NCBI GenBank assembly: GCA_040757115.1
Contig: JBFLYA010000001.1
Span: 6,526-70,525, forward strand
Direction of reading: 5' to 3'
Source of the DNA: a bacterium
GTDB lineage: Bacteria > UBA9089 > CG2-30-40-21 > SBAY01
DNA: 64,000 bases
Position 1 is the first letter of the stretch, and each line of letters begins with the position of its first letter. The position numbers and the translations under genes were made by a program. Of the stretch, positions 3,001 to 48,000 are shown one piece after another. A model generated the notes under the pieces. It made no database searches. It was not told the DNA's origin and saw only the letters and a program-made list of their open reading frames with translations.

Positions 3001-6000
3001 ACTATTGTTCCTACACTACCATAGGTAGGTGAATATAATGTTATGCCACGATTAATCACAAAATAGACTGTATCTTTATTTTGCGTCGTCAATCCTGTTA
3101 CCATAACAGTAGTCGTTCCTGAAGGTTGAGTATCGACAGTAAAAGTTAAACTAAATGTCCCTAATGTACTTGAAGTTACTGTAGTTATAGTCTTATTTAT
3201 CCCAAAATCAACTCTGACAGATTCTCTCTCTCCAAAACCATTACCTTCTATAGTCACCGTTTCCCCGACTAACCCTGATGTTGGATAGAAGTAAATAATT
3301 TTACCATCTATATAGAAGGTATTCTTATAATAAGGATTATTCAGTGTTGTGGAACCCATATTTCTTCCAACTACAGTAATCGTTACCGTCCCACCTATCT
3401 GGGTATTAACCGTAAATGAATAAGCGAATGTTCCTCCTACTGATATTTGGAACGGATTATTTTGAATGGGCTTAAAAGTACCAAACATAACAAGGACAGA
3501 TTGACCGTTTCCCATATGTGAACAATACCCATCTCCAAAGACAGTAATTAGCGTCCCAACAATCCCATGCGATGGAGAAACAAGAGATACCCTACTCAAA
3601 ATTCTGAATGTTACCGAATATGACCCGGTTGAATTTACTCCTGATGCGGTCACAGTTTTAGAACCCCAGGTACCTTCCACTAAGGTTGCTGGTTGAGTAT
3701 CAACCGTGAAATAAGTAGAGAATGTCCCGTAGGCATTTGTGGTTGCAAAGGCTATACTTACCGTACTACCAAAACTAATCCTTACCTGCTCTGTCGCACC
3801 ATATCCATCACCGACCACCGTTACTCGAGTCCATTCTATCGGTCCTGACTTAGGCGTTAAGGTAATAATCTTGGAAAGGATAAAGAAGGTATCACACGCC
3901 TCCCGCGTTCGAGAAGGATCATCACCCTCACTCTTCCATACATTCCACGCAAGTATTGTCGTTAGACCATAAGGTTGTGTATCTATAATAAAGTTAAATG
4001 TAAAGACACCTTTACTATCTACTTGCACTTCTTTATATTCTATCTGAGGAACAGTACCAAAATCAACCTTTACATACTCAGAGGCGATAAATCCATCACC
4101 CATAACCGTAATGTATGTTCCTACAGTGCCTATATTAGGTGAAACTAAAATAATATGTGGGGTTATCTTAAATTTCAAGTAGTCATATCCAGGACTATAT
4201 GAATTAATTACCTGACCTGAATTCAAACCTCGGACTTCCATCGTCTTTGTCCCATAAGGTTGAACATTTATCGTAAATATAGTTGTCCATGAACCATACG
4301 CATTAGTGGTAACTAAATTAATCGTCGGCGTATTTCCTAAACTTATACGGATAGTTTCAGTTGCTCCAAATCCTGTCCCTTCAATCGTTACATAAGTTCC
4401 TACACTACCTATTCTTGGAGTATATAAGGTAATCTCGGGAATTATCTTAAAGGTAGTCTCTCTTACTTGCTGTGTCTTTATCCCGATAACTTTAATAGTC
4501 GTAGTGCCATAGATTTGTGTATCAACCGTAAATTCAGCACTAAACTCACCACTAACATTTGTTGTCGTAGAAACAATAGTAACCGTCGTGCCAAAATCAA
4601 TTTGAATTACTTCACTCAAACCATAACCATTACCTGTTACCATAACTCGAGTATTTACTATTCCTTGAGCAGGATTAACCTGGGTAATATTAGGTCTAAT
4701 ATGGAAGAAATTAATACTATATTCCCTATGAGTATTTCCTGTAACTGTAATAGTTGTCGTCCCATACGGCTGAGGGATATTTGGATTAAATTCAATATCA
4801 CTCCGTTCACCTATCACTGAAACCTCATATGGAGAACCCCCAACACTAATTAAAGTTCCAAAATCAACTTGCACCTGCTCTTCTATCCCATAACCGGTTA
4901 CAGCTATTCGTATCTTATAATTACCAATTGTTCCATACATAGGAGTAACAGATGGAATAGATGGTATGATACGGAAATAGTCGTGCTGGTCTTCCCCTGA
5001 AATGATACCAAAAACTCTAACTGTCTTTGTTCCTAAATACTGCGTATCCACCGTAAATGTTGCTGCGAACACTCCATCATTATTTGAGCTAACTAAGGTA
5101 ATACTTCTGGTTGTCCCAAAATCAATCTGGATAGTTTCACTTATGCCATAACCATTACCGGATATGCTTATCATCGTACTTACCGAACCTATTCTCGGTG
5201 CAAGATAGGTCAATGATTTATAAATCACAACTGTAGTTATTGTGCTGGCAAAGCTATTTAACCCAATACCAGTAACCGTAGTTGTTCCAGCAGGTTGGGT
5301 ATCAATCGTAAATGATACGGTAAATGTCCCGATTTCATTACTTGTAGTCCTCGTAATAGTCGAAGTCCTACCAAAATTAATCACTACTGGTTCCAACTTA
5401 TCATACCCTGTCCCAAATACTGTAACTATCGTACCTACACTTCCCTCTACAGGCTGAACAAATATCTTTGGCATAATCATAAATGAAACCTCTCTCTCGA
5501 ACTGACCACCCCTGGCTATGACAGTCTTTGAACCATATATTTGAGTATCAACCGTCCATACTGTCCAGAATGTTCCTAATTCATTAGTTTTAGTTCCAGC
5601 TTCGGTATATGGTTTTCTATCTCCAAACCAAATATCAATACTTTCTGTTACTCTATACCCTGTCCCATGCAGGCTAACAAGGCTACCTACCGTCCCGGCA
5701 ACTGGTGAAATAACAATATTAGGTAAAACACGATAAGATGTATCTTCTGCAAATTTATTGCTTTCATCACTTGCCGTTATCTTTACTGAACCATAAGGCA
5801 CATCTTGTGAAGTAAATGTAGTGGTAAAGGAACCTGTATTATCCGCCGAAGTCTGTGTAATCGTTAGATAATGTCCAAAATCTATCCTTATGGTATGATT
5901 GGGACCAAAACCGGTTCCTTTAACCATAATAATCGTCCCAATTGTGCCTTCACCTGGCGAAACTAAAGTAATACCTTGAACTATCTCAAAGAAATTAATC

Positions 6001-9000
6001 GCACAGACACCTGATGGTGTGCCCTTAGCTGTAATAGTATTCGTGCCGTTCGACTGTGGTTGAATCTCAAATGATGTATTAAATTCACCATCAAAATTAG
6101 AAGTAGTTGTTGCCATTGGTATAAGATTCTGTGGCCAATAAACCTCAACTAATTCTGATGACCCATAACCATTACCTTGAACACTAACTATTGTCCCTAC
6201 AGGTCCTTGAACAGGTGAAACAATGGTTATCTTTGGACCAATAGTGAAATAATTAACGGCTTCCTGTTTTGGAGCATTCACCTCATAAGCCAATACCGTT
6301 GCTGTTCCAGCAGGTTGTGTATCAATAGTAAATGTTACTGTAATAGTCCCATTACCTGAAGACGTAGTATTAGCCTTATCCATAACCGTATTATGCGGGT
6401 CTATCTCTGTCCCAAATTGAATCTTGACCGGTTGATTATTTCTATAGCCACTACCATATACTGTTACTACTAATCCAACTGTACCAGAAGATGGTGAAAT
6501 CCTATAGATATTAGCAATAATCTTAAATGATGCTGTGGCTACCTCTAAAGAAAGCGTCCCTGTCGCCATAACTAATTTAGGAGAATGCGAACTATCCACA
6601 GGCTGTGTATCTACGGTAAAGATAGTATCAAATGACCCATTATGAATTGTCGAAACAGTCGTAATCGTTCGTGTCCATCCAAAACCTATGACTACTAACT
6701 CTGATGCACTGTAACCATTTCCTTTAATGGTTACAACAGTAGTTACTGGACCAGTAGTCGGTGTAATTAAATAAATATTAGATTTAATAGTCAGTGTGCC
6801 ATAAGGATTACTGCCTGAATCTATTCCCGTTGCCCGCACTGTTGTTATTCCAACGGGTTGGGTATCGATAGTAAATGTCGTGTTAAAGTAACCTGCCGCA
6901 TCGGTACTGGTAACATTTATACTCTTTGTCGTCCCAAAATCTATCCGTATACACTCACTACCTCTAAATCCATCCCCTTGCACGATAATTATAGTTCCCA
7001 CAGTGCCGGTCTTTGGCGAAATTACCTTTACGGTTGCCTGAACGGTAAAGGTTCCACTTGCCTCTTTACTGGTATTTATTCCAACTGCTTTAATCGTAGT
7101 TATCCCTACTGATTGGAGATCAACCGTGAAAACTGCAGTGAACGAACCATAGGCAGTAGTTGTAATAAAGGTAATCGTAGGTGTTGTGCCAAAGTGAATA
7201 TGTATTGGCTCTGTTGCACCAAATCCATTCCCTCTTACCATGACAGGTATTCCTATTGTCCCATCTTTAGGCTGAATCAGGATAATATTAGGCAAGATAG
7301 TGATCGTGCCTACTGCCTCTTCACTTCCCTTTGCCTTGACGGTAGTTACGCCATAAGGTTGGGTATTAATGGTAAAGGTAGTTGTCCAGCTTCCTTCTGC
7401 CACGCTGGATGCCAATCGAATATTAGAGTTAGTCCCAAAATCTATATGAATTGTCTTGGATGCCCCATAACCATTTCCACTTAGAGTTATGATTGTCCCT
7501 ACTGTTCCTTCTTTTGGAGTAATGGAAATGATATTGGATGAAATACTAATTGTGCCTTTATCTGAAATCCCATCTCCAGAAGCAACAATCGTTGTTATAC
7601 CATAAGGCTGGGTATCTATGGTAAAGGTAGTGGTAAATGAACCCTCGGCATAAGCAGATACAAATTGAATACTCCTTGTCGTCCCAAAGTCTATTTGAAC
7701 CGTTTCAGATGCTCTATATCCATTACCTCGTAAAGTAATAATTGTCCCTATCGTTCCTTCGGTTGGCGAGATAAAGATAATCTTTGGTTCAATTCTAAAT
7801 TTAACCTCGTAGGTAATCGTTCCTCCACACGCCCTAACTGTGGTCCAGCCATAAGGTTGGGTATTAATCGTAAAGGTAGTTGTAAAACTGCCACCTGCAC
7901 TGGTAGAAACAGTGGTTATAGTTTGTGTCGTCCCAAAATTAACATAAACCGTATCATTCCCACAATAACCATCTCCAGATACGGTAACTATTATTCCTAC
8001 TGTGCCGGAGGTTGGAGTAATATACACTAAGTTCTGTTTAATAAATGTATTATCAATGGCAAATATACCCAGGGCATCATTATAGGCTATAATAGTCGTC
8101 CGTCCATAAGGTTGGGTATTAATGGTGAATGTGGTTGAGAAACTGCCGTAGGCATCTGTTGAGGTAAAGGTAATACTTGGTGTCGTGCCAAATTTTATAC
8201 GAATAGTTTGACTGGCTCCAAATCCATTACCGGTTATGGTTACGATTAACCCTACCGTTCCTTCTGTTGGTGTAACTCCTGTAATAGCAGGTTCTATTCT
8301 GAAAGTAATATAAGCCGGATAATTCGAGTTCAATCCTGTTGCTTTAATCGTTGTCGTCCCATATTTCTGGGTATCGATAGTAAAGGTAACCGTAATTGAC
8401 CCTGATTCTACGGCAGTAACTGTATTAATGGTCAGGGTAGTTCCAAAATCTATCTGCACTAATTCATTACTCAGATAACCATTTCCATAGAGAGTAACTA
8501 TCGTGCCTACAGTTCCCGCGGTGGGAGTAATCTGGACTAACTTCGGTGCTATCTTAAACAGTAACGAATATGCCGATGTGCCGGTATTTATTCCCCAGAC
8601 GGTAATAGTAGTCGTCCCAATTCGTTGAACATCTACGGTGAAGGTAGTTGAGAACGACCCACATCCTTCTGAAGTAATCATAGTAATAGTCTGATTAGTT
8701 CCAAATTGAATTTGCACTGACTCATTACCACCAAATCCATTACCTGCTACCGTAACCACACTACCAACTGTTCCTTCTGTTGGTGTAACTAAAATAATAT
8801 TCGGTCCAATAAAATAGGTATTGCTTGCAGATACATCTCCCTCTTCCATATCAACGGCAACAACCGTTGTCGTTCCATAAGGTTGAGTATCAACTGTAAA
8901 TGTCGTTGAGAAACTACCTTGTGCATAAGTTGAGGTCATAGTAATAGTCTTATTTGTCCCAAAGAGAATATGAATGGTATGACTGGCGCCAAAACCATTA

Positions 9001-12000
9001 CCGGTTACCGTCACTGTAGAACCAACGGTGCCATTAGGTGGTATAACTGTAGTAACCTTTGGTTTTATGGTAAATGTCTCGATTGCAGAATTGAGTGGAC
9101 AGGTCGCCTTGATTGTAGTAACCCCACTTTGTTGGGTATTAACCGTAAAGGTAATTGTCCATGTCCCTGAAGCGTTAGCAGAAACCGTTGTAATTGACCT
9201 GGTAGTTCCAAAATCAATCCGCACGGTTGAAGCAGAACCAAAACCATCACCTTCTAATGTTACTATTGTCCCCACTGTGCCTTCTTTGGGTGTAGAGGTA
9301 TAGATTTTTGCCATTACATAGAAGATATTTGATGCTCGCTTTTCGTATTCAAGCATTTGTGCATATTTATATGAATTCCAGGCAGTAAATGTAGTTGTTC
9401 CTGCTGGCTGTTGAATATTAAAGTCATAGACCAAACTAAATGTCCCTGCCTGACTGGCATAAGTACCACCATAAGGAGGTGCTGGTGGTGTTACACTAGA
9501 ATCCGTACCATATATTGTCCCAAAATCAACATAAATCCCTTGACTTGCCGCATAGCCTGTGCCAAAGAGGGTAATTTGACTTCCCACCGTCCCTTTAGTC
9601 GGTGAAACCCAGACTAACTCTGGAATTATCTTGAATAAATCATCTACACCACCTGTATCATCATCTTCAAAACAAGAAGTTGTATCTGTGCCATAGATAG
9701 TCTTTGTTCCATAGGATTGGGTATCAACTGTCCATGTGCCATTAAATTCACCTCTATCCGTTGCCGTCGTAATCGCAATTGTTCGTGTCCAGCCAAATCC
9801 AATCAGCACCTCACCACCACCGGTATAACCATTACCCGAAACGGTAACTATAGTCCCTACCGTTCCCTTAATTGGAGTAATGCTAACAATATGTGGTACT
9901 ATTCGTAAGGTATCTGTAGCTTGTTCACGACCTGTAGGTTCTTTCGGACCGATAGCCATCGCTGTCGTTGTTCCAAAGACTTGAATGTCAATGGTAAATG
10001 TTTTCGTAAATGTCCCTGAGGCATTAGTCGTAGCAATAGTAATGGTGGAATTATTACCAAAGGCAATACGGATATTGCTATTTTCAGTATAACCTCTACC
10101 TTCAATCGTAATTGTTGTTCCTACGGTAGCAGACTTAGGTGTAAGTGTAGTAATTATCGGTAAGATAAAGAAGTAATTGCGTGCCCATTGTGCTGTGCTC
10201 AGACCAATAACCTTAATAGTTGTCGTGGCAAAAGGCTGAGGTATAGAAACTACACTCTGATCGAATTTTGCAGTAAATGTCCCTTCTGGAGAGACTCTCG
10301 GGTGAGTATCTGGCTCAATAATCACAAATCCCGTATTAGCAACTAAACCATACTCTGTCCCATAATCAATTGTTATATTTTCTCCATTTACACCATCTCT
10401 ACCAAAACCTGTTCCCTTAATAGTAATTATAGTTCCTATTGTCCCTGTAGTTGGACTAACCACAGTAATTTCTGGAATAAGAACAAAATATCTATACTGG
10501 TCAGGTCCTTTATTCCAGTATTCACCCCACTTATCTACTTCCTGAGTGTTAAGTCCTGTAGCCACAATCGTCTTGGTGCCAAAGTATTGGGTATTAACCG
10601 TAAAGATAGTAGCAAATGTCCCGGCATTGTTAGTTGAAACTGTGGTTATAGTTAAGGTTGTGCCTAAATCTATCTGCACTACCTCATTAGCACCATAACC
10701 ATCACCCTGAATAAGAATTGTATCTCCTACCTGTGCCTTCCATTTATCTGGCACATCAAAATGTGGCACTTCTACTTGCCGACTGATTAGTGTAATATGT
10801 GAATTTATCTTAAATAAGTCATCACTGCGATGATTATCCAGATCAAAGACATCAGCCGCCACAATTGTATGTGTCCCTGCCGGCTGTGTATTTACCGTAA
10901 AGGTAATACTGAATGTTCCACAGGCATTTGTCTTTGTTTCGGTAATAGTGGTAGTCTGACCAAATGTTACCCGCACGGTAGCCGTAGCCGCATAACCATC
11001 ACCAGCTATAGTTACAATTGTTCCTACAGACTGTGCCCTTGGTGTAACCAACCAGATATGCGAAATTATCTTAAAGGAATCTACATCCCTATATTCATCT
11101 TTATCAAAGTCATTGTATCCCATCCCTCCTGGTATCATACGAAATGCCTTAATAGTTGTCGTCCCATAAGATTGTGAATTAACATTAAATGTAATTGAAA
11201 ATGTCCCATTATAATTTGCAGTCTGTTGGATTATTGCCCAGCTAGTCCCAAACTCTATCGTTACTGTCCCCTGACGATGATAACCATTTCCATAAACTGT
11301 AATTGGCAATCCTACCGTCCCCACAGTAGCGGTAACATAAACAATATTATGCGTAATCTTGAAATAAGTATGATATTGTGTAGTAGTCCGTTCCCCGACT
11401 GCATTGACCGTATGTGTTCCATAGCATTGTTCATCAACCGTCCATTGTGTTATAAAACTACCATTGCCTGCTGCAGTTACCGTTGTAATACTCATATTTG
11501 TCCCAAATTCTATACGAATAAGTTCACTACCACCATAACCTGTTCCACTTACCTCTACTACAGTTCCCACTGTTCCGGTAAGAGGTGTAATACTAATTCC
11601 AGGGATAATTATAAAGTAATCATAATCCTTTGTAATCTGACCTGTGGCTGTAATAGTAGTTGTTCCCACAGGTTGAGTATCAACCACAAATGTGGCACTA
11701 AATGTTCCATTAGGTCCGGCAGTAGACATAGTAATACTTATATGTGTTCCAAAATCAATCTGGACAATTTCACTTGCCAGATAACCACTTCCTATGATAG
11801 TAACTTGAGTCCCTACTTGCCCTGAAGGAGGAATTACACTTATAATTTCTGCCTTTATAAAGAAGTTATTAAATGCCTCTTGTTTAGACATACCTTCAAG
11901 TGTTCCTCTACTTCTTACCGTAGTAGTTCCTGCTGGTTGAGTATTAATAGTGAATATATAAGTAAACTGTCCAATACCATTACATGTAGTTATTATATTA

Positions 12001-15000
12001 AATTCAACTGTAGTTCCAAACTTAATTTTTAGCTCATCCCCTGCATCATAACCATCACCATAAATTGTTACCCGACTTCCTACTGTCCCTTGTGTTGGCG
12101 AAACGGTATGAATCCTGGCGATAATGGTGAAACTACCCATCAAAACTCGCCCTGATGTGAGTCCTGTTACCACAACACTCTTTGTCCCAAAAGTCTGCAC
12201 ATCAACCGTAAATGTCAATGAGAAACTACCGTATGCATCTGAAGTGGTAATAGTTATAGTCGAATTAACCCCAAACCTGACATGAATGGTCTCTGTTGCT
12301 TCAAATCCATCACCCGTAATAGTAACCACTGTCGTTACTGTCCCTATGGTTGGGGTAAATAGTGTAAATTGCGATAAAATATTAAATGTCCCGCTTGCCT
12401 GCTGACCTGTATTTATGCCTCTTGCAGTAATCGTTGTCCAGCCATATCGTTGAGGATTGATAGTAAATGTAGTGCTAAATGAACCTGAATCAGTCGTCCT
12501 GGTAACAATGATACTCACCGTCGTTCCAAAATCAACCTGTATCTCTTCACTCGCTCCAAACCCACTACCGGCTACTGTAACGATTGACCCAACAGTATTG
12601 GCTTGTGGCTCAACCTTGAATATCTCTGGCTTGATAACTATCAACCGATAATCTTGCACCAAATCAACCTCATTTATATCTGTGGCAATAATGGTTGTCG
12701 TGCCGTAAGGTTGCGTATTGATTGTGAAGGTAATTGTCCATGAACCCTGCGGTTTAGAGATAACCGTTGTAATCGTCTTTGTCGTTCCAAAGTCAATCTG
12801 AATAGTATGAGTTGCACCAAATCCATTACCGCTTACCATAATAATCGTTCCTACTGTGCCTTCTATTGGACTGTAATAAATAATTTGTGGCAAAATAGTA
12901 ATGGTAGCAATTGCCTCCTCACTTCCTCTTGCCTTGATAGTCGTAATTCCATATCTCTGTGTATCGATAGTAAATGTAGTTGTAAAGCTGCCTTCGGCAT
13001 AAGTTGAGGTAACTTGAATACTTGGCGTTGTCCCAAAGTCAAGATGAACTATCTTGTATGCCCCATAACCATTGCCTTTAACCGTGATAATTGCACCGAC
13101 AGTCCCTGATGTTGGTGTAAGAGAGATAACATTTGACTCGATACTTAAAGTCCCTTCTGCCTTTATTACTTTACTATCGCTATGAGCAACAACAGTAGTA
13201 ATTCCGTAGTGTTGGGTATCAATGGTAAAGGTAGTAGTGAAGCTACCTTCGGCATAAGTTGAGGTAGTTTGAATAGTTAGTGTTTTTCCAAACTCTATCC
13301 GAATGATGGTTGAGGCATCGTAACCATTACCTCTAATAGTAATTATCGTCCCTACAGTTCCAGAGGTAGGTGAAATAAGAATGATATTCGGTAGAACAGT
13401 TACACTGCCATAGCGATGTAATCCCTGGTCATCTCCATGAGCACCTACTGTCGTTGTGCCATAAGGCTGCGTATCAATAGTAAATGTTGTGGAGAAACTT
13501 CCTTGTGCATAGGTTGAGGTAAGTTGAATAGTCGGTGTAGTTCCAAATTCTATCCTTATTGTCCTTGAGTTGCCATAGCCATTACCACAAATAGTAATGA
13601 TTGTTCCAACCGTGCCTTGCGTTGGTGACAGGTAGATGATATTGGGTAATATAGTAAGAGTCTTTTCTGCATTAATACCATCGCCATGTCCCTTTACTGT
13701 AGTTGTCCCATAGGGTTGAGTATCAATAGTAAATGTGGTAGTGAAGCTACCTTCGTCATAAGTTGAAGTAAGTTTAATAGTTGGTGTTCTCCCAAACTCT
13801 ATACGAATCCTTCTATAAGCCTCAAAACCATCACCCCTCACTATAACTACCGTTCCAACTGTCCCTGTATTTGCGGTAACATAAACGATATTTGGCAGGA
13901 TAAAGAATGTCAGGTTATCGGCATCGGCACCGGTAGTCATACCTGTTGCTTTAATCGTTGTCACACCATAAGGTTGTGTATTGATGGTAAAGGTAGTAGT
14001 GAAGCTACCTTCTAACTCTGCTGTCACAGTGGTAATCGTCATTGTCGTGCCAAAATCTACCTGGATTAACTCACCTGCTTTATATCCACCACCGCGTAAT
14101 GTAACTACTACACCGACAGTTCCTTGAGTTGCAGTTACTGACACTAATTGCGGCTTAATCACATACTCAAACTTCCAACTGCTCTTGCCAGTCATAACCC
14201 CAATTGCCTCAATAGTCGTCGTGCCTATCGGTTGAGTATCAACCGTAAAAGTAGTGGTGAAGCTACCGCAGTATTCTGCAGAAACTAAGGTAATTGTCTC
14301 TGTCGTTCCAAACTTAATTCTTACTAACTCACTTGAACCATAACCATTACCTCTAACTGTAACTACACTTCCTACTATGCCTTCTTTTGGCGTAATTAGT
14401 ATAATCTCTGGAATAATTCTGAGTCTATCATCATCTGAGGCAATATCTCCTGCAATAGCCTGGACATCCACTGCCACAATGGTCGTCGTGCCATAAGGCT
14501 GTGTATCAATGGTGAAGGTGGTTGAGAAACTACCGTGTGCATAAGTAGAAGTCATAGTAATCGTTTGATTAGTTCCAAAGAGAATATGAATGGTATGACT
14601 GGCGCCAAAACCATTACCTGTAACCGTAACTATTGTCCCTACTGTAGCTACCGCAGGAGTAACTGAAGTAATAACAGGTTTAATTCTAAATGATTCCGTA
14701 GCAAAGTTAAGTGGACAGGTAGCAGTAATTAAGGTATTACCACTCTGTTGCGTATTAACCGTAAAGGTAATGGTAAATGTTCCTGAGGCATTAGCAGAAA
14801 CCGTAGTAATAGACCTGGTAGTTCCAAAATCAATCCGCACGGTTGTAGCAGACCCAAAACCATCACCTTCTAATGTTACTATCGTCCCCACTGTGCCTTG
14901 TTTCGGTGTAGATGTATAGATTTTTGCCATCACATAGAAGATATTCGATGCCTTCTTATCATCACCTTGTGGTATCGCGTGAGTATATGAATTCCAGGCA

Positions 15001-39000: not shown

Positions 39001-42000
39001 CCTTTGCTCGCTTCATAACCATTACCCAATACCGTAATCTGGGTCCCTACCGAACCCTGCGCAGGTATAACCCAGGTATTTGGCTTGATAAAGAATGTCC
39101 CGGTAGCAATAGTATTCGTCTGCGTAGCTATAACCGTTACAGTTCCATAAGGTTGAACCTTAATTTTATCGGACCACAGGCTCCCAAATTCACCTAAATT
39201 ATTCGACACGACATAATTGTCTACTCCATACGAGGTAATACCAATCGTAATATAAATATCTCCACTTCCCTTAAACCCATTCCCATTGATACTGATAGTT
39301 GTTCCAATTGTTCCCTCAGCTGGACTAATAAAGAATAGGTGTGGCAAAATGCCAAAACTACGGGTAGCATAAACATTCGGGTTTCCTGTATCTGTAGCAG
39401 TAATGGTAAATGTCCCAAACGGCTGAATCGGTGCTGTAAATGTAGCAGAGAACGAACCATAGGCAGTTACCGAATGTGTCCCTAATTCTATAGTTTGTGG
39501 ATTATTGTTTATATCCACCCCTGCCCAGGTTAATTGCACATAACTCCCTGTCCCAAACCCATTGCCAGCAATCGTTACTATTGTCCCTACCGTGCCTTGT
39601 GCTGGAGTTATTTGATAGATATTGGGCAGGATAGTAAATGGCCTTGATGTTGAGATAGGATTGCCCTGATATGCTGTCACTGTCGTTGTCCCGTAAGGTT
39701 GGGTATCTACGGTAAAGGTAGTCGAGAAACTACCTTCGGCATAAGTCGAGGTCAGGGTCAAAGTCGGTGTTGTGCCAAAGATAATGCGGATGGATTGACT
39801 TGCACCATAGCCATTACCCGCAATAGTAACGATACTCCCTACTGTGCCTGATGTTGGTGTCAATACAATAATCCCCTGCAATATCCTCACCGTCAGGTTA
39901 TCTGCCACCCCTTGTGAACTACAACCTGTTGCCCGAATAGTTGTCGTGCCATAAGGTTGGGTATCAATGGTAAAGGTGGTAGTCCAGCTACCTGCAGTAT
40001 CTGCCGAAACCATAGTAATACTTATCGTCCTACCAAAGTCAACCCTGACTAATTCATTTTCTTTGTAACCAATACCGCGTAAAGTAACAATTGTCCCTAC
40101 CGTCCCTTCGGTGGGCGTAACTGAGTCTAACTGCGGGCTAATGACAAAGTAGGTTTGGGTAGCGGCTTGCGTCTGCATACCAACCGCTAAGACAGTGGTT
40201 GTCCCGAGTGGTTGAGTATTTACCGTGAATGTGGTTGAGAACGAACCAAAGACAGTTGAGGTAACTTTTGTAATCGTCCCCGTAGTGCCAAATAGTATAT
40301 GTATTGACTCACTTGCCCCATAACCATTACCTGAAACCGTAACAGTCCGCCCTATTGTACCAGTCGATGGAATTAGAGTAAATATCTGAGGCAGTATCTT
40401 GAAGGTATTGGTAGCCGGGTCTAATCTGCCAATACCCGTAATCGTAGTTGTGCCATAAGGTTGGGTATTGATGGTAAAGGTTGTGCTGAAACTACCATTG
40501 ATATTGGCAGAAATCTGAGTAATCGTTGGTGTTGTGCCAAATGCTATGCGCACCGTCTCTGATGATGAATATCCGGTTGCCTTAATAGTAATTACCGTGC
40601 CTACAGTTCCTTGCTGTGGACTTACAGACCAGATTTGAGGAAGGATATAGAAAGTGTTGTAGGCATCTTTCCCTTGACCTACATCTTCGTATGCCATTAC
40701 TGTCGTTGTGCCTCCTGACTGGGTATCAACCGCAAACGAATAGATGAATACACCTGAGGTAGTAGTAACCGTACTTAATTGTGGTGGATTTACACCAAAC
40801 CTCTTGCCAAAATTAACAATTATCCCCACAGAATTAAGGTAACCATTACCACAAACCGTGATTATTGTCCCTACTGTCCCTCTATCAGGCGTTACCAAAT
40901 AAATATTTGGAATAATGGTAAATGTCCCTACACCTACTTGAGCAGAAATAGTTCCTGTGCCTCTAATAGATTTAGGATCCGGGTCTCGTGGTTGAGTATC
41001 TGGAGATATAGTGCCGTATAATTCACCACGATAATTGGTGGTAATTGTCCCTCTATTCTGGATTGTGCCAAAACTTATCTGAACTGCTTCTGTCTTTCTA
41101 TAGCCATCTCCATAGATAGTAATCGCACATCCCACCGTGCCTTGAGTTGGTGAAATACGGTATATCCTCCCCAAGATACAGAATTTGGTATTAGTGGCGC
41201 GATGATTTATCTCATCTTGTATCCCAATGGCTACAATTGTTGTTGAGCCATAACTCTGGATATCAACCGTGAATACGGCACTGAATACACCATTATTCCC
41301 CGCAGAGACATAAGTAATACTTGCATTAGTGCCAAAGGCTATCCTTACCGTTTCACTACTACCATATCCATCACCACTAACTGTAACCGCGCTACCTACT
41401 GTCCCAGACAATGGTGTTACCTCATAGATTCTTGAAGTAATATTAAATGTTCCCCAGTCATATTCTGGTGTCACATCACCCCTTACTTTAATTGTAGTTA
41501 TTCCATAGGGTTGCGGATTAACAGTAAAGCAGGCGGTAAATGTCCCATTAAGAGATGATAGGATAACATCTGGCTCAGTAGGAATTGTTCCTATTGTCCC
41601 AAAATCAATGCGGATTATCTCCGGGGGAGAGGCTTTATAGCCAGTTCCAGAAACAGTTACCCTTGTTCCCACTACACCTGTTGTAGGCGAAATAAGAATA
41701 ATATCAGGAATAATCCTGAATTCGTCTATATCTGACCTGGCAATAGTCATACCTAACGCCTTGATAGTATGAGAACCATAGACCCGGGTATTTACGGTAA
41801 ATGTGGTGCTGAATGTCCCTTTCAGACTTGCGGTAATCGTAGTAATCGTAAAGGTATTACCAAAATCAATCTGAATTAACTCACTCTCACCATAACCATC
41901 ACCCGTTACTGTAACCATACTCCCTACCGTGCCAAATATGGGAGAAACTGAGGTAATATGCACCTCTATTCGGAATTTCCACTTCTCTTCAGATGTATGT

Positions 42001-45000
42001 CCTATGGCATCTACCACATCTATTGTCTTTGTTCCAAAACACTGTGTATCTACAGTAAATAAGGTTGTAAATGTGCCATTTACATTTGCCGTAACCATAG
42101 TAATAGTGCGATTCTCACCAAATTCAATCCTCACTAATTCACTTGAAGCATAACCATTACCCCAGATACTAATAATTGTTCCTACTGTCCCTGCTGATGG
42201 GGTTAAATAATTTATCTTGGAAAGAATCCTGAATTCTGTAAAGTCGCTACCTGTTGGAGAAGTTTGCCCATAAACTCTCACGGTAGTTGAACCATAAACC
42301 TGTTCATTTACCGTAAATAAAATAATAAATATCCCATCCTTATTTGCCTGTCTACCATCTGCAACCATATCCTGAACATTCCCAAATTCTAATCTCAGCG
42401 TCTCAGAGGTAATATAGCCATTCCCATATACGGTTACCTGGCTACCTACAGTTCCTGCTGTGGGTGTCAGGTAGGTAAGGTTACGGAGAATATCAAAGTA
42501 GGCTCTTGCACTTGTAGCGGATAAAATACCTGTCGCTAAAATTGTCCTGGAACCAAAAGCCTGCTCATTTATAGTAAATATAGTGGTAAATGAACCACAA
42601 TTTTCAGCCGTAACGGTGGTAATAGTCTGCGTTGTTCCAAAATCTATCTGAATAAGCTCACTGCCTTGATACCCTACACCCCTTACCGTGACATAAGTCC
42701 CTACTGTCCCTGATAATGGTGAAATTAAAATAATACTTGTCTTTATCCTGAAGTAGGTAGTGGCGGTAGTAATATTACCCCAGGCAATGATAGTTGTTGT
42801 GCCTACAGGTTGGGTATCGACAGTAAATGTCACCTCAAAACTACCATTACCAACTGTACTTATAGTCGTAATGGTCTTTGTCGTGCCAAAATCTATCTGC
42901 AATAACTCAGAAGCACTAAATCCGTTACCTTTAAGGGTAACTATGCTACCAACAGTCCCTTCTGTTGGTGTAATATCATAAATTCTGCCTTTAATCACAA
43001 AATTTGTTGTCGTCGCTGAAGCATAATACCAATCTGTCGTTTCAGCTATAATGGTTGTTACCCCTGCAGGTTGAGTATCTACCGTAAAGGCAATGGCGAA
43101 TGTTCCATAAATAGATGCCTTCTGCCCAGAAACTATATTTGGATTTGTTCCAAATTTAACCTGTATTTGTTGCTGCTGAGCCGGGTAAGTTTGATAATAA
43201 CTATATCCATCACCCCAGATAGTAATTACAGTTCCCACTGTTCCTACTGCAGGGCTAACCTGCCATATCCGTGCCTTAACAAAGAAGAACAATATCTGCG
43301 TTTCTGAAGAAACAGACCATTTTACCGTAATCGTCCTTGTCCCATAAATCTGCGTATCAACAGTAAAGGAAAGTGTCCAGGAACCATTCACCTCTGAAGA
43401 GGTCGTAGCAATAGTCATAGTCGTCCCAAAATCTACAAAGATAGTCTCTGACCCTCCAAAACCATTACCCCGTAAGGTAACGATAGTGCTAATTATTCCC
43501 GTTTGTGGGGTATAGAGAATAATATTAGGCTTGATAAAGAAGATTTGTGTGATTGAGCCCGCAGTATTTACTCCTCTAACTACAACCGTAGTTGAACCAT
43601 ATCGTTGCGTATCTACAGTAAATGTAGTGGAAAAAGAACCATTATCAGTAGTCGTGGTTATGGCTATAGTCCCTGTGTTGCCAAAGAGAATATGAATTTG
43701 CTCACTGGCACCAAACCCTGTTCCCGTAATACTCACCCTTGTATTTACTGTTCCTACATTTGGCGTGAGAAGATGAATATTAGGTAGAATAGTAAATGTC
43801 CCTACTGCACTTACTACACTCCCTTCATGCCAGGCACAAATAGTAGTAATACCAGAAGCCTGGGTATTAATAGTAAAGGTAGTGGTAAATGAACCTTGAG
43901 CCACTGAACTAACTACTACAATACTTACAGTTTTACCGAAGTCAATCTGCACTAATCTACTCGCCCCAAACCCATTACCTTGAATAGTAATTACCCTGCC
44001 TACTGTTCCTTCTGAAGGTGAGATAAGAATAATATTAGGTAAAATACAGAAATCTCGATATGCACTCGAGCAAGAACTTACATCTACTGCCGTAACAGAC
44101 TTTGTCCCATAGGATTGAGTATCCACAGTAAAGGAAACCGTAAATGACCCACTTTGGTCTGCTGTAATGGTAGTAATAGATGTATTTACTCCAAACTGAA
44201 TCCTGACTAATCCACTACTGGTATAACCATTACCACTTAAGGTAATCTTTGTACCTACTGTCCCCCTTGTCGGTGTCATTTCAACTATCTGTGGCACAAT
44301 CACAAAATAAGAGGTTGAAGGACCGGCAATCAACCCGGTAGCGGTAATAGTAATCGAGCCTAATCTCTGGAGATTAACTGTAAATGTAGCACTAAATGTC
44401 CCTAACGAATTAGCACTAGCACAAACGATACTCATAGTCGTCCCAAAATCTATTTGAATATTATCTGTTCTACCATAGCCATCGCCAAAAACCGTTACCC
44501 GTGTTCCTACTGTCCCACTTGAAGGTGAAACTTTATAAATTTGCGGTAAGATAGTGAATGTCCCATAAGCCTTAACTGTAGCAGATTGACTTCCTATAAT
44601 AGTCGTAGTCCCATAGGGTTGTTGTGTAACGGTAATTGTATAAGGATATTGGAATGTCCCCATTCCAGTTGCAAAAATCGTACCCTTACTTTCTATCCCA
44701 AATATGATTTCACAATCACCCACACTAAATCCATTCCCATTAATAACTACCTCTGTTCCTACTGTGCCTGATAGCGGGGTAATCGAGAATAGATTAGGAA
44801 TAATGCCAAAACTTCTTGTAGCAAAGATATGATAGGTAGTATCTGTGGCCATAACGATATGTGGACCATATTGTTGCACCGGTGCGGTAAAGGTAGTGGA
44901 GAATGAACCAAAGGCAGTTGCCTGAGTTGTAGTTCGAAGGTCACCACCAAACTCTATCCGAATCAAACTTCCTGTCCCAAACCCATTGCCAGCAATAGTT

Positions 45001-48000
45001 ACTATCGTCCCTACAGAACCCTGCGCTGGTGTTAATTCAATGAGGTTAGGCAGGATAGTAAATGTGGCTATTTGTGAGATGGGATTACCCTGATAAGCAA
45101 TCACTGTTGTCACACCATAAGGTTGTGTATCTACTGTAAATGTGGTTGAGAAACTACCTTCGGCATAGGTTGAGGTCAGGGTCAAAGTCGGTGTTGCACC
45201 AAAGATAATGCAGATTGATTGTGTGGCACCATAACCATTACCCGCTATGGTAACTCTAGAACCTACTGTGCCTGATGTAGGTGTAAATAAAACAATGTTG
45301 GGTAGTATCCTGACCGTTAGGTTATCTGCCCAGCCATCTGAGGCAATCCCTGTTGCCTTAATCGTGGTTGTTCCATAAGCCTGGGTATCAATAGTAAAGG
45401 TAGTAGTCCAGCTACCTTCTGGACTGACTGAAACAGTAGTAATCGTTCGCGTAATTCCAAAATCTATCTGCACTAATTCTGATGCCAGATACCCAACTCC
45501 ACGCAAGGTGACTACCGTTCCTACCGTTCCTTCGGTTGGAGTGATTGAGTCAAGTTGTGGTTTAATCACAAATAAGTTAGAGGCAGATGCCCCTGTCCTT
45601 GTGCCTACCGCAATAATAGTTGTCGTCCCCAAAGATTGCGTATCTACTGTAAATGTAGTTGAGAACGACCCAAAAGCAGTAGAAAGTGTTCGGGCAATAG
45701 TGGGTGTTGTCCCAAATTGAATACAAATCCACTCGGTTGCTCCGTAGCCATTACCATAAACAGTAACCACCCTGCCTACTGTTCCACTCGTTGGAATTGG
45801 ATCAAATATCTGAGGCAGTATCTTGAATGTATTAGTCGCTGGCTCTAATCTGCCATAACCGGTAATCGTAGTAGAACCATACGGTTGTGTATCAACAGTA
45901 AATGAAACCGTAAATGTTCCATCAGCATAAGTTGAAATAAGAGTAATTGTTTCTGTAGTCCCGAAGGCTATCCTGACTGACTCTGTCCCTCCAAACCCAT
46001 CTGCTTTAATGGTTACTACTGTCCCTACTGTTCCTGAAGTTGGACTAACAGAATAAATATGTGACAGGATATAGAATGTTGTTTCCTTCTTATTCACCTC
46101 AAGACTTTGCTTCGCAATAATAGTAGTACTTCCTTGTGGTTGACTATCAACCGTATAATTATAGACAAAGTTACCACTCAAAGTAGTTATAGTAGCCGCA
46201 TTGCCCCAATTTATCTGGACCCGACCAAAGGATATGAATATCTCAACTGAAGAATTATACCCTGTTCCAAGAATACTTATTACTGTCCCTACACTACCTC
46301 GTGTTGGCGTAACCCAGAAATTAGGCATAATCACAAATTGGGTATTGGTGGCTTGTTGATTAATATTTAAATCATTTATTGCCACAATAGTTGTCGTGCC
46401 ATAACCTTGCGTATCTACGGTAAATGTTACGGTAAATGTTCCTGAAGAAGTAGTAGTAACTTGAGCTATCGTATTGGTAGTCCCAAACGCTATCCTCACC
46501 TTAACCGTAGCACCATAACCATTACCATATACCGTCACTATGTTACCTACTGTTCCTGTGGTAGGCGTAATTTGAGTAATATTTGAGGTGATATTGAATG
46601 TTCCGCTATGTGGTTCTTTTGAAGTATTGCCATAGGCAGTAATAGTTGTAATCCCGTAGGGTTGGGTATTAACGGTAAATGTTGTGGAAAAAGTGCCCTT
46701 ACTACTCGCAGTTGAATAAGTAATCGTGGATAATTTACCAAATAGAATTTGCACACCTTCATTCATCCCATAGCCATTACCATAGATAGTCACTATCGTT
46801 CCTACATTACCAAATTGCGGTGTAACTTGAGAAATATTGCCAATAACCTTGAAATATGCTAATGCAGATTCATTAGGTGGATATGGATTAGATGCCGTTA
46901 TAGTAGTTGTCCCATAAGGTTCTTGATTAACGAGTGCAATTTGATCGCTAAAAGTTCCATCTATTGTAGTTGTTCCACTAATTGAAATTTGATAAGTAGA
47001 ACCAAAATATATACTTATATATGCTCCTCCTGAATAACCATTACCGCTTATAGTTACCGTAGTCCCAATTGAACCTGAATTTGGGGTTAACTCAATAATA
47101 TTAGGAGAGATAGTAAATGTGCCTTCATCATAACTTGAGTTTCTACCAGAGGCAACAATTGTCTTTTGCCCAACACTTTGCGTATCAACTGTAAAGGTAA
47201 GGGTAAATGTCCCTTTATTACCCGCAGAGGTTGTAGTTATAGTATTTGATTTACCAAAGTCTATTTGGATATCATCCAACGAGGCATAACCCGTTCCTTT
47301 AATCGTAACTATTGTGCCGACACTACCAGTAATTGGTGATAGATAGATAATATCAGGTATTATCTTAAACTCTGCCGTGCTTGAACCATTACTGCTAATT
47401 CCTGTGGCTAAAATAGTTTTAGAACCATAAGTTTGGGTATCAATGGTAAAGGTAACATTAAACTTAGCATAGACATTATCCGTAGTAGCGGTAGTAATAG
47501 TATTTGTTACCCCAAAATCAATCCTGACCTCTTCACTGGCACCATAGCCATGCCCTTCTACCGTAACTATAAATCCAACCGTCCCATAAACAGCCGGGTT
47601 AACAATAATATTTGGTTTCAAAATAAAGAATTGGCTATCGGTTACTGCTGGAGATATACCTGGATTTATAGCAGTAATCGTTACCGAACCCATAGGATAA
47701 TCTATCATAACCATATTAAGAGAAGAAATTGTAAAACTTCCTCCTCCACTACTCTCTACACTTCCTCTCCCCATCCCATCAAGCTGTCTATTACCAAAAT
47801 CAATTCTTACATTCCAGGTGGCGACAAAACCATTCCCCATAACCGTTATTTTAGTTCCTACGGTTCCAGAAGATGGTGTAACTAAGGTTATATGAGGCAA
47901 AATCTTAAAGTTACCTTCAGCGGTAGTATTAGAATTACTACCTATTGCTTGAATCTGAGTATCTCCATACGGTTGAGTATCAACACTAAATATTACCGTA

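Follow-up and report, generated by a model that had tools for sequence, protein, structure and literature searches.

The 11-domain repeat of titin matches the 43-nm period of the thick filament. According to the layouts given in reviews (e.g. PMC3859903), titin carries 7- and 11-domain Ig/Fn3 super-repeats in the A-band and 6- and 10-domain tandem-Ig super-repeats in the I-band. Among bacterial proteins, long tandem extender arrays that hold the distal part of the molecule off the cell are found in giant RTX/fibrillar adhesins (region II of MpIBP/MpAFP, MhLap, LapA and SiiE); in MpIBP the extender repeats are near-identical copies of one 104-aa unit (PMC5550230, PMC3492233). Giant genes have also been described from Omnitrophota and the PVC group by West-Roberts et al. 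(bioRxiv 10.1101/2023.11.21.568195), as has a "tandem-repeat scaffold" class of giant genes (bioRxiv 10.64898/2026.06.07.730766); a super-repeat period is described in neither of these two studies. Giant bacterial genes are usually presented as monotonous arrays or as domain mosaics. The gene analyzed here, which fills a stretch of 64,000 nucleotides of bacterial DNA (the window), has a second level of order: an old 21-domain "sentence" is repeated seven times and can be recognized in another lineage.

A giant gene of tandem Ig-like domains

Our analysis revealed a single uninterrupted reading frame on the minus strand (positions 3..63998, frame 2 of the reverse complement), with no stop in 21,332 codons, as compared to 831–2764 stops in the other five frames. 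Both the start and the stop of the gene lie beyond the window, so that the whole window is an internal piece. The gene probably belongs to the candidate phylum Desantisbacteria or to a lineage close to it. An HMM trained on the gene's own units divides the entire window into 244 tandem domains of ~87 aa (mean length 87.4 aa), a number that is a lower bound for the protein, since the window is part of a longer gene. The order of units on the plus strand is the reverse of their order in the protein, and the words "preceded" and "followed" in the first-pass annotation of this DNA refer to the plus strand. Units resemble each other at a background identity of 0.416 ± 0.064 (~42%) at the protein level and of ~52% at the nucleotide level, and Tandem Repeats Finder reported only one small array in the window. 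In comparisons of the module copies described below, dN is far below dS across the open frame.

The units are Ig-like domains of the E-set, IPT/TIG-like kind. The AlphaFold2 model of a unit (pLDDT 95.8) is a seven-strand beta sandwich, which can be superposed on E-set/BIg domains and also matches the extender domains of giant adhesins. The Pfam family TIG (PF01833) was matched weakly, by 23 of the 61 single units at E ≤ 1 (best E 1.5e-6), and was not matched by three multi-unit segments compared with Pfam; some homologues bear a precomputed PF01833 annotation, and a profile search matched the E-set domain of CGTase at E 0.002. This Ig-like unit is the sole domain class over all 21,332 residues. 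The homologues in databases are almost all partial, on contigs of 2–6 kb. One complete protein of 1608 aa that contains the same unit also has a signal peptide, a beta-helix, a dockerin and a type IX secretion (T9SS) C-terminal sorting domain; smaller paralogues carry a T9SS sorting domain and a dockerin, where RTX adhesins have an N-terminal retention module, C-terminal ligand-binding domains, RTX repeats and a T1SS signal. We infer an extracellular fibre on the micrometre scale as the gene product, with ~4 nm contributed by each domain.

Seven modules with a common order of units

The first-pass annotation had proposed a second level of repetition of ~5.4–7.3 kb above the unit ladder, visible as secondary diagonals, and both are clearly present: the number of exact 14-mer matches rises to 117 at an offset of 5610 nt, 97 at 5616, 68 at 7251 and 52 at 5424, against 25 or fewer at most other offsets and 39 at the unit-ladder offset of 255 nt. 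DNA word matches peak at 5424, 5526, 5610–5616 and 7251 nt. When domains are compared one by one, identity is highest at lags of exactly 21 (z = 15.5) and 28 (z = 6.1), and sums of these periods (lags 70, 77 and 98) likewise stand out in the unit identity matrix. The module size, previously given as 22–29 domains, is therefore to be corrected to 21 and 28.

Seven modules, A–G, extend from window position 46064 down to ~7300 and comprise 21, 21, 28, 28, 21, 21 and (21) domains, each of them opened by an 83-residue marker domain. All are encoded on the minus strand. Module A (units 68–88, 40641..46064) is the most N-terminal one, and a DNA diagonal at offset 5424 (39547–40642) ties it to module B (units 89–109, 35115..40640). 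Module C (units 110–137, 27906..35114) has seven extra units, placed among the consensus-like ones that lie between positions 2 and 10, and its partner at lag 28 is module D (units 138–165, 20655..27905). In module E (units 166–186, 14928..20654) the tail (175–186) pairs with module F, while the head past the marker has diverged. Module F (units 187–207, 9312..14927) is tied to both E and G by diagonals at 5604–5616, which cover roughly 8900–12200, with a few matches from 7618; in module G (units 208–228, 3876..9311) only the head (208–215, 7293–9311) is clearly colinear with F, and the tail has decayed. Units 0–67 on the N-terminal side (46065..63998, minus strand), which include a homogenised array of consensus-like units 13–24 (57381–60461), have no module phase, in agreement with the earlier remark that the structure ends above 46 kb. 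Units 229–243 on the C-terminal side (3..3875, minus strand) show no module colinearity, and the order score is not significant for either flank.

In Needleman-Wunsch alignments of unit order, every pair of modules among A–F scored z = 5–12, and none of 300 shuffles reached the observed score for any of these pairs; F–G scored z = 6.7 and G against the other modules ~2.5. Position-matched identity (0.45–0.66) is higher than the shifted-by-one control (0.37–0.42) for all module pairs, and it gives a nested module tree, ((A,B),(C,D)),(E,F), with identities of 0.58 for A–B, 0.58 for C–D and 0.66 for E–F. The same grammar becomes visible when unit clusters are mapped along the gene, as the first-pass annotation had recommended, and its claim that unit types follow each other in the same order from module to module holds for A–F. 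Changes in unit number are confined to the variable stretch, where neighbours resemble each other.

The marker and other position-specific units

The reference for the 83-aa marker at position 1 is unit 166 (20406..20654, minus strand), recognized by peptide, DNA signature and motifs; further copies on the same strand lie at 45816–46064, 40392–40640, 34866–35114 and 27657–27905. The 62-residue marker peptide quoted in the first-pass annotation matches aa 14447–14508 exactly (window 20660–20477). A search for the signature GGCAGTATCTTGWAKGT with up to 2 mismatches, for which ~0.05 matches are expected by chance, returned five matches (20404, 27655, 34864, 40390 and 45814), just where five markers had been reported. 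The second half of the signature given in the first-pass annotation occurs only at 34896, 40422 and 45846. Marker units start at 46064, 40640, 35114, 27905, 20654, 14927 and 9311, and their spacings of 5424, 5526, 7209, 7251, 5727 and 5616 nt agree with the 5.4–7.25 kb estimated earlier. The diverged markers suggested near 14660 and 9040 correspond to units 187 and 208 (14679–14927 and 9063–9311, minus strand), which are position-1 homologues to judge by place, length and motifs, but they are only 42–54% identical to the five other markers, as against 88% to each other. A further copy thought possible near 3400, among units 229–243, is not supported: module colinearity is absent there and throughout the stretch below ~6.2 kb. 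The marker pairs 89/110, 138/166 and 187/208 are 88–89% identical.

The "LRGGGY"-type unit occupies module position 3/4 (cluster "C"); it is represented by unit 141 (26880..27137) and by units at 45303–45560, 39879–40136, 34089–34346 and 13896–14153 (all minus strand), which are 65–74% identical to one another. The exact motif named in the first-pass annotation is confined to units 113, 141 and 190; units 70 and 91 belong to the type but lack it. Positions 11–21 form a conserved block in which 11 different unit types follow one another in fixed order, located in module E at 14928..17978 and in the others at 40641–43529 (A), 35115–38057 (B), 27906–30794 (C), 20655–23561 (D) and 9312–12374 (F), all on the minus strand. 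Neighbouring units within the block are at background identity (0.37–0.42 in the shifted control, ~52% at the nucleotide level), and no other part of the module is as well conserved in the second lineage.

Age of the copies and a second lineage

Between module copies pS is 0.55–0.8 (saturation background 0.69), whereas pN is 0.1–0.3 (background 0.41), which means that position-specific protein sequence has been kept; dN/dS of module-copy pairs falls to 0.08–0.15 at some positions. With synonymous sites close to saturation and few differences in amino acids, we conclude from these sequence comparisons that the module duplications are old and that the copies are held by purifying selection.

Outside the window, the grammar was tested in the giant genes of two MAGs, Yes70-11 and Modern_marine.mb.176; the genes are orthologous (78% identity), and the two MAGs therefore count as one independent lineage. 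A 21-unit period was found independently in contig JASEHA010000001.1 (lag-21 z = 6.9), and the units of the second-lineage giant gene fit the 21 positions of the window in one phase only (z = 12 and 9), with the matched position ranking first for positions 1–3, 11, 13, 14, 16 and 17 in one or both of the two comparisons. Motifs common to both lineages include GTVGT with the second Gly lost (position 11), GYQxxE (position 14), a GD..NH tail (position 16) and QP(A/G)GTTT (position 21). The second-lineage modules are 0.38–0.46 identical to each other and 0.38–0.45 identical to the window modules. To judge from the sequences, the super-repeat is older than the separation of this lineage from at least one other. 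Over 5512 aligned codons the orthologous MAG genes show dN/dS of 0.21 and no gaps of 20 aa or more, with no unit gained or lost over 65 units at dS 0.72. The 21-unit phase was looked for and found absent in other Desantisbacteria fragments and in the remaining parts of these MAG genes. Further long proteins of the family have short repeats of 2–6 units or none, and a conserved grammar was not seen in them.

Origin of the super-repeat

We propose that, in a protein of at least 244 domains, the middle ~150 domains are an old super-repeat that was copied in blocks and is kept by purifying selection; we assign this account as a whole a probability of about 0.8. The ancestral block of ~21 domain types would have consisted, in protein order, of the marker, two or three fixed types including LRGGGY, a variable consensus-like stretch, and eleven types in fixed order. 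It would have been copied whole in tandem, presumably by unequal recombination in register, to yield seven modules, two of which have a variable stretch longer by seven domains, and a last round of copying or homogenisation would have given the neighbour pairs A/B, C/D and E/F. These pairs fit a duplicated block that ends C-terminally in the marker: the marker copies most alike are B1/C1, D1/E1 and F1/G1. Growth of the gene by whole-block duplication, already suggested in the first-pass annotation, is well supported by the exact 21/28 periods, the colinear unit types and the nested module tree. The accompanying suggestion that domain order is under constraint survives in part: the old copies do keep position-specific sequence, the same order is found in the second lineage, and selection on order itself is plausible, but inheritance of copied blocks together with ordinary purifying selection would give the same colinearity.

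The higher-order repeat could thus be purely historical, with old block copies under selection for folding, positions that are equivalent spacers, and an order kept as nothing rearranged it. The adjacent units of positions 11–21, being at background identity, make unit-level unequal crossing-over mechanistically unlikely, and the lack of shuffling there may be mechanistic because neighbours are too dissimilar in DNA for easy misalignment; unit number has changed only among the similar neighbours of the variable stretch, and the other long family members give no sign of a conserved grammar. On the other hand, non-consensus position-specific motifs are retained in the second lineage in spite of module identities of 0.38–0.46, the MAG genes show no unit indels, and dN/dS is very low at some positions, all of which speaks against equivalent spacers. 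We consider a purely historical origin rather unlikely, and the 21 positions are probably not interchangeable. Copying a block of dissimilar domains would lengthen the fibre without placing similar domains side by side, although an argument from avoidance of misfolding is weakened by the homogenised arrays elsewhere in the same protein, in which adjacent units are 60–73% identical.

The neighbour pairs and the 88–89% identical marker pairs might also reflect concerted evolution (gene conversion or unequal exchange) instead of three last duplications. An AA'BB'CC' pattern can be produced both by concerted evolution and by three separate duplications, and under pure duplication it needs three independent events. 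Moreover, three sharply bounded tracts of ~250–350 nt, with 80–98% nucleotide identity, sit exactly on marker pairs inside otherwise saturated module pairs (20350..20650 with 27601–27901, 34880–35110 with 40406–40636, and 9110–9320 with 14726–14936, minus strand); dS of the marker pairs is 0.37–0.56, as compared to at least 1 or saturation for most neighbouring units, which is consistent with gene conversion. Beyond these tracts, however, dS within the pairs is near saturation, so whole-module homogenisation, if any, would also be old, and concerted evolution as the source of the pairs is possible but doubtful. Genes of this kind fragment badly in short-read assemblies, as the mostly partial homologues illustrate, and mis-joined or duplicated repeat reads might in principle mimic modules. 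Such artefacts yield near-identical copies, whereas the modules differ at 30–45% of nucleotides with the frame intact through 64 kb, and the 21-unit period is also seen in independently assembled contigs; we regard an assembly artefact as extremely improbable.

Relation to titin, adhesins and other giant genes

Titin and the window protein are both giant and built of tandem beta-sandwich domains, with a super-repeat that block duplication would account for; in both, same-position domains are more alike than neighbours, adjacent domains share ~40% identity or less, and position identity is conserved between species (for the window protein, in one outside lineage). The window protein differs in being bacterial and presumably extracellular, in having a single domain class and a longer period (21 or 28 domains), and in lacking a known periodic partner such as titin has in the thick filament; there is no sequence relationship between the two past the general Ig-like fold. 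We therefore take the titin-type super-repeat as an architectural class, not a homologous family, in which the window protein can be placed by its fixed period, matched order and cross-species positions. By analogy, the 21-domain super-repeat might be a structural code, with its own geometry or binding partner for each position and a fixed period of ~85–90 nm, by which some periodic structure outside the cell would be measured out or scaffolded, as a bacterial counterpart of the A-band super-repeats of titin, but we think this improbable. Such a structure could be, for instance, a sheath, a cell–cell tether or a lateral bundle of fibres, and module sizes stepping by seven (28, 21, perhaps 14) would tune the period. 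If the period were structurally meaningful, this would be, speculatively, the first titin-like ruler outside eukaryotes.

With LapA, MpIBP and SiiE the window protein shares a long extender of tandem BIg domains, as indicated by its 244 units and their fold matches. The MpIBP extender has no higher-order grammar, whereas the window units are ~42% identical and fall into 21 ordered types. Near-identical repeats of the "periscope" type, with a copy number that varies between close relatives, are excluded by the ~52% nucleotide identity of units and by the absence of unit changes in 65 units at dS 0.72. Like the giant genes of Omnitrophota and the PVC group, the window gene is a single frame of tens of kb from uncultured groundwater or sediment bacteria, fragmented in short-read MAGs, with ancient repeats that have "dissolved" at the nucleotide level while the domain architecture persists. 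The proteins of those genes combine HEAT/TPR repeats with enzymes, dockerin and transmembrane segments in a mosaic, in contrast to the one domain family of the window; the Archaeovorin and Dockerin types (mosaics of HEAT/TPR, enzyme, dockerin/TSP3 and transmembrane parts) are excluded, as the Ig-like unit alone spans 21,332 residues.

The gene provides a concrete case for studying the growth of very long tandem-domain proteins through block duplication, and it allows testing whether such proteins avoid similar neighbouring domains and whether one domain of such a fibre can stand in for another. The 21 position-specific profiles can be used as landmarks to scaffold or check assemblies that shatter in short-read metagenomes. 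Another protein with the same unit type, P0143 (6156 aa), also has tandem block repeats, with blocks of 2, 3 and 6 units, and block duplication would be the mechanism in both; its blocks are short and many copies are near-identical and so recent, whereas the 21/28-unit block of the window is old, diverged and common to two lineages.

A giant reading frame of tandem Ig-like units

On the minus strand the window is read without interruption from 3 to 63998 (21,332 stop-free codons in frame 2 of the reverse complement), whereas the remaining five frames contain 831–2764 stops. It thus represents an interior segment of a single minus-strand giant gene, neither end of which lies inside, so that the gene exceeds 64 kb and is among the largest bacterial genes reported. 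The two plus-strand ORFs of at least 150 aa are antisense to this frame and probably meaningless. Exact 50-mers taken from the window had no match in the collections of genome and metagenome contigs searched. A profile HMM trained on six units taken from the gene itself covers the whole frame with 244 back-to-back domains (numbered 0–243 from the N-terminal side), with a mean length of 87.4 aa, a mean pairwise identity of 0.416 ± 0.064 and the consensus PNIILVTPTSGTVGTIVTVRGNGYGASELIRIDFGTTPTITTTSTNANGSFTTTFTVDTQPYGTTTITATG. Across all units, Thr56, Gln60 and Gly63 of the motif FT(V/I)DTQPYG are nearly invariant (at least 90%) and its Asp is widely conserved, against ~42% identity otherwise. 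Conserved Lys, His or Cys residues pointing to isopeptide, ester or disulfide cross-links were not found across the units.

The AlphaFold2 model of the unit is a seven-strand beta sandwich (pLDDT 95.8), and TIG (PF01833) matches 23 of 61 single units, albeit weakly. In a Pfam search of multi-unit segments no family passed the threshold, and weak matches to F5/8 type C and lectin domains were dismissed as noise. At E ≤ 0.001, 6572 of 1.84 billion cluster representatives belong to the unit family. One homolog, P0044 (complete, 1608 aa, paralogue-type), combines a signal peptide, a beta-helix, seven units of the window type, a dockerin and a T9SS sorting domain, and this composition shows that the unit is used outside the cell. 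In P0074, a complete secreted protein of 4177 aa, the unit appears alongside NHL-like and beta-propeller-like regions (judged by eye from the sequence). Judging from these two proteins, the giant gene looks like an extreme case of expansion of a domain that is in wide use among the surface proteins of the lineage.

A super-repeat of 21 or 28 units

Exact 14-mer matches within the window peak at offsets of 5610, 5616, 7251 and 5424 (52–117 matches each), against at most 25 at most other offsets and 39 at the unit-ladder offset of 255. These peaks, located at 8905–12220, 20338–21253 and 39547–40642, are the secondary dot-plot diagonals anticipated by the first-pass annotation, which had proposed that multi-domain modules, each with a distinctive marker domain, recur every 5.4–7.3 kb. 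At the protein level, the unit-by-unit identity matrix gives z = 15.5 at lag 21 and z = 6.1 at lag 28, with the sums 70, 77 and 98 also enriched. The marker peptide matches exactly at 20660–20477, and its DNA signature is present at exactly five sites (20404, 27655, 34864, 40390 and 45814; 0.05 expected by chance). Marker units 68, 89, 110, 138, 166, 187 and 208 open modules A–G of 21, 21, 28, 28, 21, 21 and (21) units, respectively, and their spacings of 5424, 5526, 7209, 7251, 5727 and 5616 nt agree with the earlier figures. The diverged copies proposed there correspond to units 187 and 208, which are homologs of position 1 by place, 83-aa length and motifs, but share only 42–54% identity with the other markers; a further copy suggested near 3400 fails the tests applied to the modules. 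Module sizes step by exactly seven units (28 against 21 in the window, possibly 14 in a related gene). A 7-unit sub-period (21 = 3 × 7, 28 = 4 × 7) was discarded as a level of repetition, because no lag-7 signal is seen inside the modules.

The modules were aligned as strings of units with double-centred identity scores, and 300 shuffles of the unit order served as the control. The same order recurs from module to module, as had been claimed: all pairs among A–F score z = 5–12 and none of the 300 shuffles reaches the observed score, while module G is colinear chiefly with F (z = 6.7). Colinearity with the modules was not significant in the shuffle test for the upstream units 47–67 and the downstream units 229–243, and outside units 68–219 no module grammar was found in window units 0–67 or 229–243. 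Clustering of the units at 50% identity yields the strings (EBCAW.X.AY.ZGI.aJNb.c) for module A, (EBCAW.OVOYdeGI.aJNbSc) for B, (EABCCAAAAAf.EgHAAK.GIhMJiFjk) for C, (EABCAAAAABC.EAllHKmGDhMJmFjk) for D, (Enig.DBE.oKpLqrstuvwx) for E and (yABCCAAAnHKpLqrstuvwx) for F. Read in protein order, a module thus mapped begins with the marker (position 1) and continues with fixed types at positions 2–4, among them the LRGGGY-type units 70, 91, 113, 141 and 190; a variable run of consensus-like units comes next, and eleven distinct types (positions 11–21) close the module. What the first-pass annotation called "before" and "after" follows the plus strand, and is hence opposite to protein order. The seven extra units of modules C and D (20655–35114) fall within the variable stretch.

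A trio of consensus-like units, 14–16 (59442–60197), recurs 46.3 kb away as units 192–194 (12891–13646), with 71–81% protein identity and saturated synonymous sites (pS 0.61–0.75). Units of this type also make up the N-terminal array (units 13–24) and occupy the variable stretch in modules C, D, F and G.

Age of the modules and probable gene conversion at the markers

Random pairs of units show pS of 0.69 ± 0.06, i.e. saturation, and pN of 0.41 ± 0.05. Between neighbouring modules, units at matched positions show pS of 0.55–0.8 but pN of only 0.1–0.3; units 182 and 203, for instance, share 82% protein identity at pS 0.65 and pN 0.11. Because synonymous sites are near saturation while pN is low, the module copies are old and maintained by purifying selection. 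The age of the copies combined with their low pN also rules out an assembly artefact.

Exceptions are short tracts of ~250–350 nt with 80–98% nucleotide identity (dS 0.37–0.56), which coincide exactly with the marker pairs B1/C1, D1/E1 and F1/G1 (34880–35110/40406–40636, 20350–20650/27601–27901 and 9110–9320/14726–14936) and are sharply bounded within module pairs otherwise saturated at synonymous sites, a pattern that probably reflects gene conversion. The module tree from position-matched identities is ((A,B),(C,D)),(E,F). The module bodies group as A/B, C/D and E/F, but the markers are closest between B1 and C1, D1 and E1, and F1 and G1. The best depiction of the duplicated block therefore puts the marker last.

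The module grammar in a second lineage

The closest matches among database proteins are fragmentary sequences from MAGs of Candidatus Desantisbacteria, whose 34–42% identity is no better than the background between units. The contigs that hold four of the homologs (P0003, P0007, P0016 and P0048) consist of pieces of such giant genes, and the seeming gene boundaries on them have the look of artefacts caused by frameshifts or N runs. In a pattern scan limited to one genome per species, two contigs from different MAGs turned up, JAHIZN010000456.1 (55.8 kb) and JASEHA010000001.1 (57.2 kb), the examined portions of which are open throughout and made of the window's unit. One stretch of each (L009 in the former, L013+L007 in the latter) is orthologous to the other over 5512 aligned codons, with 78% identity, dS 0.72, dN/dS 0.21, no gap of at least 20 aa and no unit gained or lost; the two therefore count as a single independent lineage (Yes70-11/Modern_marine).

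The gene of this lineage has a lag-21 signal of its own (z = 6.9), and its units fit the 21 positions of the window in a single phase (z = 12 and 9; all other phases at most 4). For positions 1–3, 11, 13, 14, 16 and 17, one or both of the two comparisons place the matched position at the top of the ranking. Motifs common to both lineages are G-x-V-T/S-T replacing GTVGT at position 11, GYQxxE at position 14, a GD..NH tail at position 16 and QP(A/G)GTTT at position 21. Modules of the other lineage are 0.38–0.46 identical among themselves, against 0.38–0.45 to those of the window, and form no separate clade, which indicates that the super-repeat is older than the split of the two lineages. No one-to-one orthology between the modules of the two lineages emerged: the best diagonals reach only 0.42–0.43 and recur every 21 units. 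A 14-unit module in the other gene is tentative; it is suggested by position classification (L013+L007 units 59–72; L009 units 39–52), while order alignments give inconsistent paths.

Elsewhere in the genes of the other lineage we found homogenised arrays or no phase in place of the 21-unit grammar, and related contigs L001, L002, L015, L019, L020, MM_b and Yes_2 likewise show only homogenised arrays of lag 1–5 or no clear phase. More distant members of the family have at most short repeats of 2–6 units. One of them, P0143 (6156 aa), has 2-, 3- and 6-unit blocks in numerous copies, many of them nearly identical; recent duplication of multi-unit blocks therefore occurs elsewhere in the family.

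Proposed growth and function

The comparisons establish block duplication in register, with old copies under purifying selection and a grammar conserved in a second lineage. By analogy to adhesin extender domains and titin, we infer an extended fibre as the product; with ~4 nm per domain, its length would be ~1 µm for the window alone and about 85–120 nm for one module. Duplicating a block of mutually dissimilar domains would lengthen the fibre while leaving the nearest similar domain still 21 units away. This would fit the known pattern that tandem domains next to each other usually remain below ~40% identity; adjacent units in the modules are 0.37–0.42 identical. Homogenised arrays elsewhere in the same protein have 60–73% identity between neighbours, so low neighbour identity is not an absolute rule. 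The order of units may itself be selected, or may be merely inherited and mechanically hard to scramble.

The super-repeats of titin are a works-alike architecture, although the window gene shares no homology with titin beyond the fold and has no known periodic partner. RTX adhesins differ in their near-identical extender repeats, unlike the diverged and ordered units described here, and the giant proteins of Omnitrophota are mosaic, unlike this gene. The literature searched yielded no account of super-repeats in giant proteins of bacteria, an absence that is no proof of novelty; the architecture is clean, well supported and somewhat unexpected.

In modules E and F (9312–17978) the units at positions 15–18 and 21 are unusually long (88–106 aa). 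Position 16 carries an extra strand-like terminal segment, NSHITL(V/I)SR..E, and position 17 is without the usual PxIxxVxP start, which suggests a remodelled domain junction particular to these two modules.
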